DNA of 33,330 nucleotides from an uncultured Ignavibacteriales bacterium (GTDB lineage: Bacteria > Zixibacteria > MSB-5A5 > GN15 > JAAZOE01), in NCBI GenBank assembly GCA_964611355.1, contig CAZSYD010000026.1, positions 1 through 33,330 on the forward strand, written 5' to 3'. Shown here in pieces: positions 16,854-24,361 of this stretch; the stretch's first letter is position 1, and every line of letters begins with the position of its first letter. The notes beneath the pieces were generated by a model that had not been told where the DNA came from, did no database searches, and was given only the letters and a program-made list of their open reading frames with translations. The position numbers were made by a program, and so were the translations under genes.

Positions 16854-19232
16854 TTAATGCACATCGATCCGAAAACCGCCGTAGATGATGCGTCCGTAAA
16901 CCGGAGCGTACATAAAGGCGGCGTCGTCGGTATGCTTCTCCTGCTGGATGTAATTGGTCAGGTTCCTGCCGCCGATATAGAGCGTATAGCAGTCAAGAAA
17001 GGTATATGATACCCTGGCGTTGAGAATAATAAATGATTCAGTCTCCTTGATCTTAGTCGGTTCCTCATCGTCCATGAAGTAGTCGATGAACATTTTGCCC
17101 TTGTATTGACCGTCAAGAATGAATCTCCAGTCAAGTGGGGAATATTCAACTTTTAATCCGCCCGCCGTCTCGGGATACCGCGATATCTTCCTGCTTTTCT
17201 CCTCGTATTCGGTACCGATCCAGTCACTTCTTGGATTGTCATACTCGCCTTTGTTGTAGGCGAAATCGACCGCAAGGGCAAGATCGGGTGTGACCGCCGA
17301 TTTGGCTCCGAATTCGGCGCCCATGACAAAGGCATTGTCGACATTTTTCCATTGATAGGAATATCCAAGGTTTTCAATTTCCGGACCGGCATCGGTGAAG
17401 TCGATCTTGTTTTTCAGATCGGTTCGGTACAGGCTGAGATTGAATGACATACGGGGCAGGGCATAATCGGCCGAAACGCTGAAACTGGTTGACCTCTCCG
17501 GCTCCAGATCGGCGCCTTTCCAGATTCGAGGCGACCCGCTGCAGAGATGCATATCTTCCGAAAAACCGTAGGGTACCCTGAACCCGGTGCCGAAACTGCC
17601 GCGCAGGGTCAATTCCGGAGCGGGTTTGAACTTTACGGCAAATCTCGGATTGACGGACGTTTCGTCGAATTTCGCCGGTTGGTAATCCAGAGAAGCGACG
17701 TCGGCGGACCCCCGGAAATTGTCTTTGGATTTATGATGGTCGACCCTGACGCCGCCGACCAGTTCGAGCTTATCGGTTACCGCAAATTCATCCTGAACAT
17801 AAGCGCCGAATTCGTCTGCTTTTTTCTCGCTGTATGAAGTGTATCCGTTTCCTTCGTCATCAATGTATCGGCCGGACTCTTCAAGCTCGTTATGCATAAT
17901 CTGTGCGCCGGCGAGGACTCGATGCGATCCGGCCATTGGGTGAACATAGTTGATAGTGGTGGCATACAGGTTCTCTTTGGCAATATAAGGGCGCACGTCG
18001 TCAACGGGGGGCAGTCCACCGTTGGCGGCCTCATAATCGCTAATGTATGTATCATTGGTGGCATTGCGTTTGTGCCGGGTAAACGAAAAGTCGATATTTA
18101 ACTCGTCGCCGGTACGGAACTGTTTTTCATAACCGACGGCCCCGGTAAAGCGGTCGGTAATGATGCGTTCGGTGCCGGGAGTAAACGGGTTTTCCCAGGC
18201 GTCGTCAATAAGTTCTCCGCCCTGGCGTATTTCGTGGAGTGATCGACCTCGTAAGGTCAGTACATCAGTTTCGGAGAGGTCTTCAATATAGAGGTTAAAA
18301 CCAAGGTTTTTCGAATTGGTTCGGACTCTGTCGGTGACGCCGTCTGGATTCTCTACCTCGTCCGAGGTCAAGCCGTCGCCGGTCTGATCAATCTCGTTGG
18401 CCTTGTTCTGTTGGCCGAAAACGAAAAATGCAAGATTCTCGTTCCGGATACCGGCCGCTACCTCGTATTTATTGGTGGAGTATTCACCGAACTCGACGCC
18501 CACGTGTCCCTTGGTCTTCTGGGGAATGGAAGAGATTATATTTATCGCTCCGGCGATGGCGTTGCTGCCGTATAGTGCGGAACCGGCTCCCTTGACTACC
18601 TCGATTTGATCGATGTCGGCCGTGCCCAACTGCTGCAATCCGTAAACCGACGCCAGCCCGGAATAAACCGGCTGACCGTTCAGCAGGATTTGAGTATGGT
18701 CGGCGCCCAGCCCCTGCATGCGCAGAACGCTGAAATTGCAGAACTGGCATTGCTGTTCCACGCGGATGCCCGGCGTGTTGTCGAGAGCTTCGTAAAGGTT
18801 ATGGGCAGCCTTGTCAATTATTTCCTGTTTCGTGATAACCTCGGTATAGACCGGTGTGTCCTTGATGTACCGCGGCGTCCTGGTGCCGGTAACAACCATT
18901 CCCTGCATTTCAAGGGGGCTTTCTTCGAGAGCGAATTTGATCGTTTCGGTTCCGCCACCCTCAAGGCTAACCTTTTTAACGCCGGTGGCATAACCGACCA
19001 TGGTAACAATCACCCTATAGGTTCTTGGGCCAAGTTTGCCGATAATGCCGATACCCTCCTGATCGGTGATCGCGCCGCGATTGGTGCCTTCTATGGTAAC
19101 ACTGGCGCCAGGCAGCGCTTCGCCGGTTCCGGCGTCAACTACGCTGACCCTGATGCCGGCGCTTGGCATAGCCAGAGCCAGACTGCATAAAAGCACGCAG
19201 GCTGTGCTTATGACTGTTATCGTTCTATACAT
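16854..19232 (-). CDS. TonB-dependent receptor, putative metal or metal-complex uptake
   Basis: Signal peptide, carboxypeptidase-like N domain, VVTGTRT, plug with EQQCQFCNF and IEVVKGAGSALYGSNAIAGAINII, barrel loop EDMHLCSG. Confidence 0.93.
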   Translation of the reverse strand: MYRTITVISTACVLLCSLALAMPSAGIRVSVVDAGTGEALPGASVTIEGTNRGAITDQEGIGIIGKLGPRTYRVIVTMVGYATGVKKVSLEGGGTETIKFALEESPLEMQGMVVTGTRTPRYIKDTPVYTEVITKQEIIDKAAHNLYEALDNTPGIRVEQQCQFCNFSVLRMQGLGADHTQILLNGQPVYSGLASVYGLQQLGTADIDQIEVVKGAGSALYGSNAIAGAINIISSIPQKTKGHVGVEFGEYSTNKYEVAAGIRNENLAFFVFGQQNKANEIDQTGDGLTSDEVENPDGVTDRVRTNSKNLGFNLYIEDLSETDVLTLRGRSLHEIRQGGELIDDAWENPFTPGTERIITDRFTGAVGYEKQFRTGDELNIDFSFTRHKRNATNDTYISDYEAANGGLPPVDDVRPYIAKENLYATTINYVHPMAGSHRVLAGAQIMHNELEESGRYIDDEGNGYTSYSEKKADEFGAYVQDEFAVTDKLELVGGVRVDHHKSKDNFRGSADVASLDYQPAKFDETSVNPRFAVKFKPAPELTLRGSFGTGFRVPYGFSEDMHLCSGSPRIWKGADLEPERSTSFSVSADYALPRMSFNLSLYRTDLKNKIDFTDAGPEIENLGYSYQWKNVDNAFVMGAEFGAKSAVTPDLALAVDFAYNKGEYDNPRSDWIGTEYEEKSRKISRYPETAGGLKVEYSPLDWRFILDGQYKGKMFIDYFMDDEEPTKIKETESFIILNARVSYTFLDCYTLYIGGRNLTNYIQQEKHTDDAAFMYAPVYGRIIYGGFRIDVH

Positions 19233-19236
19233 CTTT

Positions 19237-19316
19237 GCTTCTCCTTCCAGAGGCTGGTTTTGTGTCTATGTAAATCGCAAAACAGACCGCAGACGGCCCG
19301 TTACCAAAGGAGAAAC
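19237..19316 (-). promoter_or_regulatory. Anti-SD/SD stem sequestering the receptor ribosome-binding site
   Basis: mRNA GUUUCUCCUUU (19316-19306) can pair over 11 bp (2 G-U) with GAAGGAGAAGC (19247-19237), the SD of the receptor. Confidence 0.7.
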
Positions 19317-19702
19317 GGGGGAGCGCGATTGGAATTATCAAAGTAAATATTTCGACTTAGATCGACTTTCCCTGAGAGGAAAGAAATAAAAATAACTATT
19401 ACGAATATAATCAGGGCATTATTTAAGGACAATGTTGCCTTATATAACGCATGCGAATATATGCCATATATAATGTATTCTTTTTTTGTATGTGAATGAT
19501 GACGGTGGTCTTTCGATTCTTCCGCGTCGTCGTGACCGACAGGATGGCTGTGGACAACAACTCTGCCGTCAGGCAGCACATGCATATGTATCGAGTAAAA
19601 ATTCGACGATATGAAGCCGGTCAGGCTGAGGAAGACAAGAATGGACAGCAGCCTGAGCAGGCGATCATTTAACCGGGTATTTTTCGTCGCCCATCCAACC
19701 AT
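19301..19702 (-). CDS. His-rich membrane leader protein with C-terminal RAPP arrest motif (133 aa)
   Basis: ATG 1 nt after the DtxR stop; hydrophobic segment, HMHVLPDGRVVVHSHP..DHRHHSH, second hydrophobic segment, ends NRAPPFLLW. Confidence 0.8.
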   Translation of the reverse strand: MVGWATKNTRLNDRLLRLLSILVFLSLTGFISSNFYSIHMHVLPDGRVVVHSHPVGHDDAEESKDHRHHSHTKKEYIIYGIYSHALYKATLSLNNALIIFVIVIFISFLSGKVDLSRNIYFDNSNRAPPFLLW

Positions 19703-19703
19703 T

Positions 19704-20222
19704 TTAGCTTGATTCGATCCTTTGCCGGTACTGCTCAAGAGATTGGGACAGGCAGCGTTCGCATTTCTTTCGAGTAGGTATGCCGTGCTCACAGCGATAC
19801 CTGAATTCCTGAAGCCATTCAACTCCCGCGCGGGGGCAGGTTTCGATAAACTCGGCGAATTCGGTCAATCTTTTAAGAATCTGAGGCGGCATAGCGTGTT
19901 CCATTTTACAGGCGGTCTCGTCGGAAATCCTGTCGTCTATAAACAGAACTTTCGTAAAGAAATTCAGAAGAGCTTCATGTCTGCGGACAACGTCTCTGGC
20001 CAGCGTCTTTCCTCTGGGCGTCAGGGTAATTATCTCGTATGGGGCGTAATTAATCAGCTTTTTCTCGGCCAGACTGCGGAGAGCGCCGCTGACCGACGAC
20101 ATTTTGACTTTCAGTCTTCTCGATATATCCCTGGTCCGGGCCGCCTGCTTTTCGGAGACGATATGATAAATCGCCTCCAGGTAATCTTCCATGCCGGCGC
20201 TGAGTTTGGTTGATGACGTCAA
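19704..20222 (-). CDS. DtxR/MntR-family metal-dependent repressor with Cys-rich tail
   Basis: MEDYLEAIY, SVSGAL..L, Y..I.LT..G, RRHEALLNFF, ACKMEH. Start reassigned to TTG 20222 after AAGGAGG SD. Confidence 0.93.
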   Translation of the reverse strand: MTSSTKLSAGMEDYLEAIYHIVSEKQAARTRDISRRLKVKMSSVSGALRSLAEKKLINYAPYEIITLTPRGKTLARDVVRRHEALLNFFTKVLFIDDRISDETACKMEHAMPPQILKRLTEFAEFIETCPRAGVEWLQEFRYRCEHGIPTRKKCERCLSQSLEQYRQRIESS

Positions 20223-20282
20223 ATTATTCTCCTCCTTCAACCGTTTTGGAACGGCAAATACTATTGAGGCCTGCCGAATACT

Positions 20283-21209
20283 TTATTCTGCCGACTGCGC
20301 CGGATTGTTGATTTCCGCCCAATTGGTCGCTTTATCAACGATCCATTCGGCTATTTTCCGGCCGGGCAACAAACCACGCTCCTCGAAAACCACATTCTCC
20401 CCCGCAAAAAATTCCAATCCGTCTTTTGACGTATGCCCAAGCCAAGCCATCCAACGCCGGGTAAACCCGGCTGCACCGGAGACCATATACAGACCCAGGA
20501 CCAAAACCCGGTCGGATTTATCCCGAGCGCGCCGTATTGCCGGGACGCCTTCGGACAGGAAACCCTGTCCCATTCCGGTAAAAGCATAATCGAAATAGCC
20601 GATCCCTGTTTTGGCGCAAAGACCTGCGCCGACTTCGGTTATCAATGATGTCCAGGCCGGTTCAAACCTGCGGCTTCCGTGAGCCAGTATAACGATCGAT
20701 TCCAAGGAAGGATCAACTGATATCTCTTGAAGGCGGTCGAGCAGGACAGCTTTGATGACCTCGGCGTCAGGGGTCGGGCCGATGGTTATCCTGATATCGG
20801 CGTTTACGATGTCGATCCCTTCCTCTTTCATTTGCTCCACGATATCTTTATCGCCGTATAACCCCAGGATAGTCGGGAGATCATACAGGGTGTGGCTGGA
20901 AGGCGCCACAAACAACGGCAGAACGTAGATTCTGTCGGTTCCGTCTTTTTTCATCTTTGATGTGACCGTTGCAATCGACGGTTCGGCAAACTCCATCAAC
21001 GCCACCCTTATGGAACTGAATAGACCAGGATGCCGTGATTGCATTATTTCGCTTACCTCTTTTTCAAGGTCAAGCACGGCTTGATTCCAGGCGGGGACGG
21101 GCGAACCGTGAGCAACGATGAGAAGCCCTGGTTTTTCTTCCGCGAACAGATTGCCGGTCAGCATCAAAATCGCGATTATTATTCCCGCCGCGGCAGTAAA
21201 CCGTTTCAT
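20283..21209 (-). CDS. Exported CbiX/SirB-like (class II chelatase fold) protein
   Basis: Start at ATG 21209 (GGGGAG SD); signal peptide MKRFTAAAGIIIAILMLTGNLFA; LIVAHGS, ALMEFAEPSI, VLPLFVAPSSH, second VILAHGS. Confidence 0.85.
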   Translation of the reverse strand: MKRFTAAAGIIIAILMLTGNLFAEEKPGLLIVAHGSPVPAWNQAVLDLEKEVSEIMQSRHPGLFSSIRVALMEFAEPSIATVTSKMKKDGTDRIYVLPLFVAPSSHTLYDLPTILGLYGDKDIVEQMKEEGIDIVNADIRITIGPTPDAEVIKAVLLDRLQEISVDPSLESIVILAHGSRRFEPAWTSLITEVGAGLCAKTGIGYFDYAFTGMGQGFLSEGVPAIRRARDKSDRVLVLGLYMVSGAAGFTRRWMAWLGHTSKDGLEFFAGENVVFEERGLLPGRKIAEWIVDKATNWAEINNPAQSAE

Positions 21210-21263
21210 CTTGTTTAACTCCCCCGTGTGACGGATTAAGGTCATAAAGCGTCCAGGTTTCAC

Positions 21264-21300
21264 ATTATTAGGCAACCCTAATAATATTAGGCAGATATAA
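21264..21300. promoter_or_regulatory. DtxR/SirR-type operator (tandem)
   Basis: Perfect ATTATTAGG-caac-CCTAATAAT (core TTAGG-N4-CCTAA) plus imperfect TTAGG-caga-TATAA (21287-21300). Confidence 0.8.
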
Positions 21301-21311
21301 CATCTTGTCAA
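21284..21311 (-). promoter_or_regulatory. Promoter of the metal-uptake operon
   Basis: Minus strand TTGACA-N16-TAATAT, overlapped by the operator. Confidence 0.7.
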
Positions 21312-22075: not shown

Positions 22076-24361
22076 ATCAACAGCGCGGAGATCAGACAGT
22101 CATTTATAGACTTTTACAAAGCACGCGGACACTCGCATCAGATATCTTCGCCGGTTATTCCGCTGGATGATCCCACGCTTCTGTTTGTCAACGCGGGGAT
22201 GAACCAGTTCAAGGATATTTTCACCGGTCGGCGCAGGGTTTCGTACAAGCGTGCGGTAACGGTGCAGAAATGTATTCGCGCCGGCGGGAAGCATAACGAT
22301 CTCGAAAACGTCGGCCAGACGAGCCGCCACCATACTTTTTTCGAAATGCTGGGCAATTTCTCATTCGGCGATTATTTTAAGGAAGAAGCTATTGCCTCCG
22401 CATGGGAATGGATAACGAAGACGCTTGGCCTGCCGCCCAACCGGCTTTATGCAACGGTCTACACCGAAGACGATGACGCCTTTGGACTATGGGAGAAGAT
22501 CGCCCCGGAACTTAAAAACGGGCGGATACTTCGTTTCGGCAAAAAAGATAATTACTGGGCGATGGGTGATGTCGGCCCATGTGGACCGTGTTCGGAGATT
22601 CATTTTGATCGCGGCGAGCATCTTTCAAAAAGTCAACCGGACGCATGGATTAACACCGACAGTGAACGATATGTCGAAATCTGGAATTTAGTCTTTATGC
22701 AGTATAATCAACTGCCCGGTGAAGATGAATTGGTTCCACTGCCGAAACCGTCGGTCGATACCGGAGCGGGGCTGGAACGGATCGCAGCCGTGATGCAAAA
22801 GGTCGATTCCAACTACGAAACCGACTTATTTTTACCGCTGACCGCGCACGTAGCCGATATCACTAGCGTCAAATATGATCCCGGGCGGGAGGGTACCTCG
22901 CATCGGGTCATCGCCGACCATGTGCGAGCTTTATCGTTTGCCCTTGCGGACGGCGGCGGCCTGTCCAATGAAGGTCGGGGATACGTTCTGCGCCGTATCC
23001 TCAGGCGCGCCGCGCGCCATGGCCGCCTGCTCGGATACAAAGAGCCGATTATCTATAAGCTCGTTCCGACACTGATTGACATTATGGGTAAGCATTACGG
23101 CGAGCTCCGCGAAAAGCAGAAGCATATCAAAGAAGTCGTCAAATCGGAAGAAGAACGTTTTAGCGATTTGTTAGATACCGGCCTGGAGCTTTTTTCTATA
23201 CTTGAACAGAAAGTCAAATCTTCCAGCTCCGATACCATCCCCGGCGAGGACATTTTCAAGCTGTATGACACTTATGGCTTCCCGGTTGACATGACGGCGA
23301 TCATGGCCGATGAAGCCGGCTTGAAGATGGACATGGACGGTTTCAATATAGCGATGCAACGACAGCAAGAACAGTCACGGGCGGCGTCNNNNNNNNNNNN
23401 NNNNNNNNNNNNNNNNNNNNNNNNNNNNNNNNNNNNNNNNNNNNNNNNNNNNNNNNNNNNNNNNNNNNNNNNNNNNNNNNNNNNNNNNGTGGAACCCGAC
23501 CGACTGCGATTTGATTTTTCGCATTTTAAGGCTTTAACTCCTGAAGAAATTTCGGCGGTCGTAAAAATCGTCAACGAGAAAATCCTGGCGGCCATTTCTG
23601 TCACCACAGAAACCAAATCGACCGAGGAAGCGATGAAATCCGGCGCAATGGCGTTGTTTGGCGAAAAATACGGCGATGAAGTTCGCGTTGTATCAATCGG
23701 CGATTTTTCCAAAGAATTATGCGGCGGCACTCATGTTACCAACACATCAGAGATAGGGTCATTCTTAATCACCGATGAATCGGCTATCGCCGCAGGCGTG
23801 CGCCGCATAGAAGCGGTTATCGGAAGAAAAGCCGTGGAGTTGAGTCAGTCCGGGCATAAAATACTCAAGAATCTTAGTGCAACGCTCAATGTTCCTGTTG
23901 AGCATGTTGAAGAAAGAGTCGAAAAGCTGTTTCAATCGGATAAAAAGAAGGAAAAAGAAATCAGGAAGCTGAAGGCTGAAAGCGCGCGTATAGCACATAC
24001 TGGTCAGTCAATCTATGAATCTAAAAAGATTGATGAGGTTGATTTATACTCAAAGAATCTCGGCGATACCGATCCGGATTCAATGGCCGGCTGGGCAGAT
24101 AATTTTAAGGGTTATGCTAATCCAACTATTGCTTTTGGTTTTGGTAATATCAATGGGAAAGAGACATTTATGGCAAGCGGGTCGTATGCGACCGTGGAAA
24201 TGGGATTAGACGTAGGGAAAATCTTTGGCGAGATAGCCAGAGAATTCGGCGGTCGAGGGGGTGGGAAGGCGAGTTTTGCCCGAGGTGGTGTAGCCAACGG
24301 AACAACCTTTGAGGAATTCCTGGATAAGGCCATAACGAAAATCAAGGAAGCTCAAACATAA
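22076..24361 (+). CDS. alaS: Alanine-tRNA ligase (interrupted by assembly gap; apparent ATC start)
   Basis: Frame extends 41 codons upstream of ATG 22199 as INSAEIRQSFIDFY..DPTLLFVNAGMNQFK; also HHTFFEMLGNFSFGDYFK, DTGAGLER, ELCGGTHV, GGRGGG. Confidence 0.97.
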   Translation: MNSAEIRQSFIDFYKARGHSHQISSPVIPLDDPTLLFVNAGMNQFKDIFTGRRRVSYKRAVTVQKCIRAGGKHNDLENVGQTSRHHTFFEMLGNFSFGDYFKEEAIASAWEWITKTLGLPPNRLYATVYTEDDDAFGLWEKIAPELKNGRILRFGKKDNYWAMGDVGPCGPCSEIHFDRGEHLSKSQPDAWINTDSERYVEIWNLVFMQYNQLPGEDELVPLPKPSVDTGAGLERIAAVMQKVDSNYETDLFLPLTAHVADITSVKYDPGREGTSHRVIADHVRALSFALADGGGLSNEGRGYVLRRILRRAARHGRLLGYKEPIIYKLVPTLIDIMGKHYGELREKQKHIKEVVKSEEERFSDLLDTGLELFSILEQKVKSSSSDTIPGEDIFKLYDTYGFPVDMTAIMADEAGLKMDMDGFNIAMQRQQEQSRAAXXXXXXXXXXXXXXXXXXXXXXXXXXXXXXXXXXVEPDRLRFDFSHFKALTPEEISAVVKIVNEKILAAISVTTETKSTEEAMKSGAMALFGEKYGDEVRVVSIGDFSKELCGGTHVTNTSEIGSFLITDESAIAAGVRRIEAVIGRKAVELSQSGHKILKNLSATLNVPVEHVEERVEKLFQSDKKKEKEIRKLKAESARIAHTGQSIYESKKIDEVDLYSKNLGDTDPDSMAGWADNFKGYANPTIAFGFGNINGKETFMASGSYATVEMGLDVGKIFGEIAREFGGRGGGKASFARGGVANGTTFEEFLDKAITKIKEAQT
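23389..23488. other. Scaffold gap (100 N placeholder)
   Basis: Run of exactly 100 N within alaS. Confidence 0.99.

Follow-up and report, generated by a model that had tools for sequence, protein, structure and literature searches.

Introduction

Why should a small, histidine-rich protein be encoded directly ahead of the gene for an outer-membrane receptor? The question is raised by a locus on the minus strand of a 33,330-nucleotide stretch of DNA from an uncultured Ignavibacteriales bacterium (contig CAZSYD010000026.1 of assembly GCA_964611355.1, assigned to Zixibacteria)—we refer to the whole of this stretch as the window. Here a 133-residue open reading frame (ORF) with RAPP near its end, which we call the leader (P0001), is followed 68 nt downstream by the gene for a TonB-dependent receptor. 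An earlier model-made reading of the bare letters, the original prediction, had proposed that ribosomes stall at RAPP, that a stalled ribosome frees the Shine-Dalgarno (SD) sequence of the receptor from an anti-SD sequence lying just after the motif, and that metal bound by exported histidines ends the stall. Following this up by computational comparison of the leader, its relatives, and their loci, we conclude that the leader is probably a metal-sensing arrest peptide controlling translation of the receptor; on the strength of sequence comparison we give this whole chain a rough probability of 0.6.

The leader and its family

Retranslation returned the leader as it had been described—133 residues, 10 histidines (H39, H41, H51, H53, H57, H66, H68, H69, H71, and H84), and RAPP at 19327-19316. 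A basic N-terminus is followed by a hydrophobic segment, a histidine-rich stretch, a second hydrophobic segment, and the RAPP ending, with NSN-RAPP-FLLW-stop at the C-terminus. The start codon, an ATG at 19702, lies 1 nt past the stop codon of the preceding DtxR-family gene. A 173-residue frame opening with TTG was set aside in favour of this start, because a 75%-identical homologue (P0002) is also 133 residues long and because methionine stands at the aligned column in 140 of 160 family sequences. The leader has no cysteine, and therefore lacks the CXXC/CxxxC sensor that defines the copper-responsive leaders CruR and CutF.

AlphaFold2, given a 139-row alignment, models the leader at a pLDDT (predicted local distance difference test) of 81.1 and a pTM (predicted template modelling score) of 0.44, with a predicted helix at residues 9-36, a beta hairpin at 38-42/48-52, and a second helix at 73-116. 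The first two HxH pairs fall on the two strands of the modelled hairpin and the third in a low-confidence loop. From the positive-inside rule and this predicted topology we infer that the N-terminal segment inserts N-in, which would put the histidine loop in the periplasm.

The family is large and unannotated. Of the 31 candidates from a word-indexed search with the leader, 12 proteins reached E<=0.01; when 1.84 billion cluster representatives (50% identity) were searched exhaustively with HMMER, at least 285 family proteins came up at E<=1e-3, with 17 at <=1e-10 and one at <=1e-30. In the ESM Atlas the nearest clusters are unnamed hypothetical proteins, commonest in Bacteroidota; DUF6769, at 0.93, is the nearest that bears a Pfam family, and no more than a lead.

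Conservation, counted in a MAFFT alignment of 160 family sequences, is concentrated in two places. Four histidines (H39, H41, H51, and H71) are present in 160/160 and two more (H53 and H69) in 159/160, so numbered after the leader; beyond these six, the conserved columns are G46 (156/160), E75 (129/160), R126 (154/160), P128 (154/160), and P129 (155/160). The remaining columns are variable, and mean column identity is 21% (alignment A2). The arrest motif was expected to persist among homologues, and it is near-invariant and C-terminal: R-[AGSP]-P-P stands 1-11 residues from the C-terminus in 150 of the 160 sequences (RAPP 98, RSPP 31, RGPP 16, RPPP 5), the other 10 having H/K-x-PP or being cut short. 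Three leaders, those of L062, L068, and L070, run on for 38, 14, and 11 residues beyond R-x-P-P, where 1-6 is usual.

Between histidines and motif, length is kept and sequence is poorly conserved. The offset from the last histidine of the third pair to the arginine is 55 in 90 of 149 parsable sequences and 52-56 in 142; the seven outliers, at 40-45, include the leader of the window itself, where the search pattern had matched a later YSH and the true value is 55. A hand count in one Bacteroidota-type relative from the source data of PMC12992588 gives 56. At the other end, the maximal 19-residue Kyte-Doolittle value of the N-terminal region is at least 1.6 in 97% of 144 family members. The second hydrophobic segment named in the original prediction is present in the leader (about 91-111), but it resembles a transmembrane segment in only 87 of 149 members and is for that reason not essential to the family.

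A receptor gene follows the leader

The gene after the leader encodes a TonB receptor of the CarboxypepD_reg type in 51 of 54 non-redundant loci, which come from two phyla and include the window; the predicted synteny therefore holds, and a Sec or YidC component is next in 0 of these 54. A genome scan found 10 leader loci in metagenome-assembled genomes labelled Zixibacteriota, Neomarinimicrobiota, Ignavibacteria, or 'bacterium', with the receptor next in 10/10. Within the window's phylum the leader family occurs in 36 of 285 genomes (27 of 198 high-quality ones), and 21 of 22 non-redundant downstream ORFs are receptors of this type; in the second phylum, that of L003, it occurs in 27 of 301 sampled genomes, and 19 of 21 downstream ORFs are such receptors. 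As to the exceptions, L022 has a downstream 372-residue protein without a family, and L071 one of 387 residues with a weak OMP_b-brl match. The third, L059 (G305:C1), has an intact leader ending in RAPP-VMI, then a 27-residue ORF with a signal-like start, and then a MatE gene—it looks like a decayed or rearranged locus. At L033 the receptor ORF is closed at 363 residues.

Pairing between the leader and the receptor ribosome-binding site

The codons immediately after RAPP had been said to pair over 11 bp with the receptor SD. They do: GUUUCUCCUUU and GAAGGAGAAGC match at 11 positions, with nine Watson-Crick and two G.U pairs, and the GGAG core of the SD lies 8 nt ahead of the receptor ATG (19232-19230). 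This pairing is found in both the minimum-free-energy (MFE) and the centroid fold of 19345-19215, where it encloses an inner hairpin that may bring anti-SD and SD together. In L011, a near-identical metagenome copy of the locus, the segment after RAPP pairs with its own ribosome-binding site at -21.0 kcal/mol, which beats all 97 same-length windows of the same leader coding sequence and all 32 ribosome-binding sites of the other loci.

Whether the pairing is kept elsewhere was examined per locus, by computing the best duplex between the leader RNA, starting at its Arg codon, and the receptor start (positions -22..+3). Two sets were used, set 1 (n=33) and set 2 (n=19, second phylum). Identical leader cores, L044 (a near-copy of L040), L013 (no downstream DNA), and L016 and L017 (other proteins) were dropped before counting; set 2 further lost L048 (the same as L003), L056 (a near-copy of L053), L059 and L071 (no receptor), L067 (start unclear), and L065 (no motif ORF found). 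Anti-SD offsets (0-18 nt after the Arg codon) and intergenic lengths differ between loci, and for this reason a swap and permutation test was used in place of a column-by-column count of covariation.

When the tested RNA segment began at the Arg codon and ended 6 nt beyond the stop codon (n=33), leaders paired on average with their own receptor start at -13.05 kcal/mol and with swapped starts at -9.80 kcal/mol, and the summed energy of the own pairs was matched in 0 of 20000 permutations. Ranked against about 92 segments of equal length from the leader coding sequence of the same locus, this segment is the best partner in 15 of 33 loci and better than the median in 28. A fixed 36-nt window gives a similar picture in both sets (Table 1).

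Table 1. Own and swapped pairing energies for a fixed 36-nt window; 'best' and 'beats median' are relative to about 92 same-length windows of each locus's own leader coding sequence
Set	Loci	Own (kcal/mol)	Swapped (kcal/mol)	Permutations reaching own sum	Best	Beats median
Set 1	33	-13.28	-9.92	0/20000	15/33	29/33
Set 2	19	-8.60	-7.26	122/20000	7/19	16/19
Both	52	-11.57	-8.80	0/20000	22/52	45/52

Five loci (L034, L035, L036, L008, and L028) have 8-11 perfect pairs each in unrelated sequences. More generally, the paired sequences vary by locus and reach into flanks that are not part of the SD; since they vary, the pairing appears to have been kept through compensating changes. The covariation that the original prediction had called for is thus seen in the contrast of own with swapped pairing over the 52 loci, though not in all of them, as we discuss below.

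Several side observations belong here. In some loci of the second phylum, for example L050, L054, L058, and L064, the anti-SD consists of the Ala-Pro-Pro codons themselves (GCA/GCU CCU CC-), resembling the anti-SD tail of 16S rRNA; arrest codons and RNA switch therefore overlap in those loci. The leader of L062, despite its 38-residue tail, pairs at -12.9 kcal/mol. G+C-rich hairpins comparable to the one at 19282-19301 are seen in many loci, and the intergenic fold reaches z <= -2 in 14 of 50; because a U tract is usually absent after the hairpin, it is probably not a terminator. A permissive Rfam scan of 18800-20400 returned only a chance match to CrcZ (E = 0.52, 13.7 bits against a 95-bit threshold).

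The expected footprint of a stalled ribosome

For the ribosome we took a footprint reaching 15 nt beyond the first base of the P site, an established figure. If its P and A sites hold the two Pro codons, a stalled ribosome would cover 19316-19306 entirely, and the anti-SD lies where the original prediction had put it, under the expected footprint; this placement of the Pro codons is the one reported for the CruR toeprint (PMC12992588). The same geometry recurs across loci. In 28 of the 33 loci (out of 52) with a duplex at or below -10 kcal/mol, at least half of the paired anti-SD bases fall under the footprint, and in 12 all of them do; 32 of these 33 pair at least five bases in the SD zone at -15..-5.

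The effect of such a ribosome on the SD was modelled with a partition function, masking either the footprint or a control footprint 30 nt upstream. In L011, the window's copy, the mean predicted probability that the SD is unpaired goes from 0.04 to 0.36 on masking (control 0.04). For set 1 the mean rises from 0.29 to 0.43 (control 0.30), with a gain of at least 0.2 in 14 of 33 loci against 3 of 33 for the control, and for set 2 from 0.43 to 0.53 (control 0.43), with such a gain in 5 of 19 against 0 of 19. In this model the masking effect is in the right direction but partial.

A proposed mechanism

We propose that the nascent chain is brought to the membrane by its N-terminal segment, which would leave the loop with its three HxH pairs facing the periplasm. 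The ribosome would stall at R-A-P-P, its P and A sites occupied by the two Pro codons, and would cover the partner of the receptor SD; the receptor could therefore be translated only while the stall lasts. An exit tunnel holds 30-40 residues, and the 55-residue spacer would correspond to about the exit tunnel plus the translocon, with the third HxH pair just emerging when the ribosome is at RAPP. We infer that the six histidines bind a divalent metal; its capture would pull on the chain, or change the pull on it, and so alter the duration of the stall. For an uptake receptor the polarity would be that metal, when present, releases the stall, the hairpin re-forms, and the receptor is switched off; with little metal about, the stall would be longer, leaving the SD accessible and receptor synthesis on.

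The links in this chain differ in strength. Arrest at R-x-P-P is very likely, by analogy with the known behaviour of the motif (PMC10951233, PMC12992588). That SD shielding is the output in this window we hold with good confidence, and we think it fairly likely that the leader senses a metal; that metal releases the stall, rather than prolonging it, is only slightly favoured. A more ambitious form of the proposal, in which a six-histidine periplasmic loop 55 residues before RAPP is a co-translational sensor of a non-copper metal (Ni, Fe, or Zn), released by force and found across the FCB group (Fibrobacterota-Chlorobiota-Bacteroidota), is tentative.

Family identity, neighbouring genes, and candidate metals

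The leader matches 0 Pfam families at E<=0.1, and 139 family members gave no family, with scattered chance matches only. DUF2946 (PF11162), to which CruR and CutF belong, matches weakly in 2 of the 139 (best E = 9.3e-5) and has no match anywhere in the window's genome; the leader was rejected as a DUF2946 member, having no Pfam match and no CXXC/CxxxC. In NCBIfam, 103 of the 139 members match NF053668 (HypB_prefix_2), all below the cut-off (best E = 2.2e-6). The leader itself scores 18.8 bits against a curated cut-off of 35 and has no GTPase domain. The prefix of HypB is nickel-binding.

A metagenome pattern scan with alignment A1 gave seven loci, two of which (L016 and L017) carry the histidine motif only, in other proteins. 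There, HxH-VLPDGR-x-V-x-H(S/A)H heads a CobW/HypB/UreG-domain protein (L016:2800-3816) and a membrane protein that matches DsbD_2 weakly (L017:2-484). Judged by the sequences it heads, the motif may be a portable metal-binding module.

The genes near the leader speak for other metals. DtxR-family regulators lie upstream of it in the window, L022, and L031, and a Fur-family regulator in L006; FeoB or its Gate domain is found nearby in L003, L049, L051, L052, and L061, and ZIP transporters in L003 and L009. Directly upstream of the leader in L047, L053, L056, L063, and L066 is a gene for a Nitro_FeMo-Co-family (PF02579) protein of 110-115 residues, preceded in L056, L063, and L066 by a response-regulator gene. 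The likeness to the HypB prefix points to Ni or Co as the sensed metal, the neighbouring genes to Fe, Mn, or Zn. Periplasmic sensing of Ni, Co, or Zn, as originally predicted, is accordingly one possibility: the HypB likeness favours Ni, and the neighbours run from FeoB, DtxR/MntR, and Fur to ZIP and CbiX-like proteins.

The features of the window are collected in Table 2. The receptor has clear Pfam matches (PF07715 6.7e-24, PF00593 7.4e-49, plus CarboxypepD_reg), but its NCBIfam matches are all below their cut-offs and do not allow a substrate subfamily to be assigned. Compared with solved structures it has no close relative; a likeness of the plug domain to CirA, BtuB, and PhuR gives no clue to the substrate.

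Table 2. Features of the leader-receptor locus (positions in the window; residue numbers are those of the leader)
Feature	Position	Strand	Remarks
TonB-dependent receptor, 792 aa	16854..19232	minus	signal peptide, CarboxypepD_reg, Plug, beta barrel; Pfam
Receptor Shine-Dalgarno region, GAAGGAGAAGC	19237..19247	minus	core GGAG 19244-19241
Inner 8-bp hairpin, loop UCUG	19282..19301	minus	between anti-SD and SD; MFE and centroid folds
Leader ORF (P0001), 133 aa	19301..19702	minus	including stop codon; translation and homologue P0002
Anti-SD, GUUUCUCCUUU	19306..19316	minus	starts at last base of second Pro codon
RAPP codons, cgc gct ccc ccg	19316..19327	minus	presumed arrest motif
Spacer, residues 72-125	19328..19489	minus	54 intervening residues; H71 to R126 offset 55
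Second hydrophobic segment, residues ~91-111	19370-19432	minus	within spacer; predicted AlphaFold2 helix 73-116
Histidine loop, residues 39-71	19490..19588	minus	HxH pairs H39/H41, H51/H53, H69/H71, plus G46
N-terminal hydrophobic signal/anchor segment, residues ~15-37	19592..19660	minus	K/R before it; predicted AlphaFold2 helix 9-36
DtxR/MntR-family metal-dependent regulator	19704..20240	minus	Fe_dep_repress + Fe_dep_repr_C; MntR models below cut-off
CbiX-like chelatase-fold protein	20283..21311	minus	hydrophobic N-terminus; likely first operon gene

The CbiX-like protein has nickelochelatase models as its best NCBIfam matches, below their cut-offs, and is possibly periplasmic; a CbiX-like gene also adjoins the receptor in L001 (L001:4019-4963). 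At the head of the gene in the window is a promoter-like site, TTGACA-16 nt-TAATAT (10/12 matches, 21284-21311, minus strand), which could drive a cbiX-dtxR-leader-receptor operon; the count of such sites in the region is not above that of shuffles (5 vs 2.9 +/- 1.6). Elsewhere in the window, the ORF at 22199-24361 (plus strand, 720 residues) contains a run of 34 X at 23300-23400, so that about 100 N must lie there, as a scaffold gap or a masked stretch.

Weighing the evidence

A number of points weigh against the proposed mechanism. The pairing predicted in the window forms in both folds, but the 131-nt stretch as a whole is not unusually stable (z = -0.24; 82 of 200 shuffles at least as stable), and claims must therefore rest on the specific pairing and not on overall stability. 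Across loci, 19 of 52 pair weakly (above -10 kcal/mol), six (L005, L015, L032, L041, L007, and L026) have no pairing above background, and the effect is weaker in the second phylum. Receptor starts were picked by SD strength and signal-peptide look, eight of them corrected by hand; and because the loci are related, the permutation figures overstate independence and are not true probabilities. The modelled unmasking of the SD is partial, at 0.36 in the window's copy and with a gain of at least 0.2 in only 19 of 52 loci. The neighbouring genes do not agree on one metal. The organism of the window is known from a metagenome-assembled genome only, and the ESM Atlas suggests that the assemblies holding relatives of the leader are mostly Bacteroidota. 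SD-led initiation is rare in Bacteroidota; SD shielding is therefore not the output everywhere. Polarity is a guess—copper releases the stall of CruR and strengthens that of CutF (PMC9426467, PMC9973294).

This last point opens the way to an explanation with the same parts and the opposite sign. As reported for CutF, in which copper bound in the periplasm strengthens the stall and so opens a stem-loop that shields an SD (PMC9973294; bioRxiv 10.1101/2025.02.05.636593), metal bound in the loop might hold back export and prolong the stall; receptor synthesis would then depend on the presence of the metal or of a chelate of it. We think this unlikely, for reasons of logic alone: what is controlled here is the gene for an uptake-type receptor, not for a detoxifying enzyme, and its neighbours are repressor-type metal regulators and importers. 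The output might also differ. The stall could act mainly on transcription, blocking Rho or RNA structure in the intergenic region with the anti-SD as a secondary matter, which is how the only characterised TonB-receptor leader of this kind, CruR, is reported to work (Rho-dependent termination; PMC9426467). The long intergenic regions (median 125 nt) and weaker pairing in the second phylum would suit this, as would the structured hairpin between stop codon and SD and the intergenic folds of z <= -2 in 14 of 50 loci. We give this account rather little weight: the SD pairing covaries, a scan of the coding strand for intrinsic terminators came up empty between leader and receptor (3 sites in the region vs 2.7 expected), and the two genes lie close together in the window's phylum (median intergenic length 65 nt).

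Two further explanations concern the protein itself. It could be the working partner of the receptor—an inner-membrane, periplasm-facing metal binder that takes metal or hands it on—with a metal-independent stall at RAPP and the anti-SD serving only to couple translation at a fixed ratio. AlphaFold2 confidently predicts a membrane hairpin of two helices along with a structured beta hairpin (pLDDT 81), the six histidines seem to be kept more strictly than a purely regulatory peptide should require, and, as any ribosome reaching the stop codon crosses the anti-SD, plain translational coupling would use the same pairing. Set against this are the second helix, which is transmembrane-like in only 87 of 149 members, and the spacer, whose constant length and free sequence are more what one expects of a ruler than of a folded partner. 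Ordinary proteins are, moreover, reported to avoid R-x-P-P strongly (PMC12992588), yet it is kept here at a fixed C-terminal place, and a working partner seems to us improbable. It is highly improbable that the leader monitors membrane insertion or export capacity (Sec/YidC) in the manner of SecM, MifM, or ApdA/ApdP, with the histidines incidental. An N-terminal localisation signal with a C-terminal RAPP is described as the hallmark of monitoring substrates (PMC7897499, PMC10987492), but the leader is followed by a TonB receptor gene in 51 of 54 loci and in none by the gene for a Sec or YidC component, and such a monitor has no role for six invariant histidines at a fixed distance.

Significance and comparison with known systems

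To our knowledge, metal-sensing arrest peptides have so far been found for copper only, and with cysteine sensors only (CruR and CutF). If the more ambitious form of our proposal is right, the leader would be the first cysteine-free arrest peptide to sense a metal other than copper, and it would be widespread in the FCB group, including relatives from many cultured Bacteroidota-type assemblies; receptor synthesis would be set by the periplasmic metal level, through force passed along the translocon and the exit tunnel. The family would offer a second sensor chemistry with a clean anatomy—invariant histidines, a spacer of fixed length and free sequence, an arrest motif, and SD pairing. The discussion of PMC12992588 asks what supplies the force that ends RAPP stalls in systems other than Sec/YidC, and this anatomy would make the question directly testable. 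For the many unassigned CarboxypepD_reg-type TonB receptors of Zixibacteria-like, Marinimicrobia-like, and Bacteroidota genomes, the leader would provide a regulatory handle and a hint to the substrate.

The original prediction had implied that an RAPP leader of this kind is new, and here it claimed too much: a 2025 EMBO J study (PMC12992588) reports that RAPP and RGPP small proteins, encoded by upstream ORFs, are enriched ahead of TonB-dependent receptors, and members of the present family are in its source data. Its source file holds 5450 RAPP against 722 AAPP entries, and RAPP, RGPP, and RSPP are reported there as arrest-competent or partly permissive. The Figure 4 source data list the leader of L029 with a TonB-dependent receptor downstream, and the strings IVHSHP, VVHSHP, and VHAHP occur in the source data at least 92, 15, and 19 times. 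In the main text of that study we found no account of the histidine motif, the fixed spacer, or SD pairing for leader-family or TonB-class entries, and a discussion of histidines for Streptomyces proteins only; our literature search found no description of the leader family. A second Bacteroidota-type RAPP family in the same source data, DUF6769, is rich in both His and Cys and lies upstream of RND (resistance-nodulation-division) efflux adaptor genes.

Among characterised systems, the analogy that had been drawn was with CruR (Bordetella pertussis Bp2923, DUF2946), the leader of the copper transporter BfrG/CrtA. It holds in part. Like the leader, CruR is described as a small exported protein with RAPP a few residues before the stop codon, a TonB receptor next, and a metal-binding motif at a fixed distance from RAPP—45 residues in CruR, 55 here—and its stall keeps the receptor on (PMC9426467); arrest and a toeprint have been reported for it (PMC12992588). 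CruR, which heads its operon, differs in its CXXC sensor, where ours is histidine-based and the receptor is of the CarboxypepD_reg type; the analogy is also imperfect in that CruR acts through Rho-dependent termination and is proposed to sense in the cytoplasm, without need of its signal peptide (PMC9426467).

In these respects our proposal resembles CutF (Rhodobacter capsulatus, DUF2946, the leader of cutO), which is reported to be exported co-translationally and to sense metal in the periplasm, and whose stem-loop shields an SD (PMC9973294). CutF in turn differs in its CxxxC sensor, its EF-P (elongation factor P)-dependent PPP-type motif, its multicopper oxidase target, the strengthening of its stall by copper, and its protein family; the mature CutF protein is reported to be undetectable or rapidly degraded. 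Closer in sensor chemistry are the histidine-only, CutF-like clusters 14 and 17 of the sequence similarity network of Ozturk et al. 2023 (PMC9973294), described as having a signal peptide, histidine-only motifs, and a C-terminal PP, with Ni/Co sensing proposed; their neighbours are HupE/UreJ-family genes and not TonB receptors, a comparison made with the text description of these clusters alone.

More distant are ApdA, ApdP, and SecM (RAPP/RAGP), which share with the leader an arrest motif near the C-terminus, an N-terminal localisation signal, and control of a downstream gene by the stalled ribosome (PMC10951233, PMC7897499), but are described as monitoring Sec/YidC from upstream of sec or yidC genes, and have no metal-binding motif. 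The N-terminal prefix of HypB (NF053668) has the HxH...G...HxH motif in common with the leader, which differs in having no GTPase domain and in that all its family's matches are below the cut-off. Taken together, sequence comparison indicates that the leader family is a real and well-supported variant of a published class, with other sensor chemistry, another protein family, and other phyla—a variant that would pair a CutF-like output with a CruR-like target.

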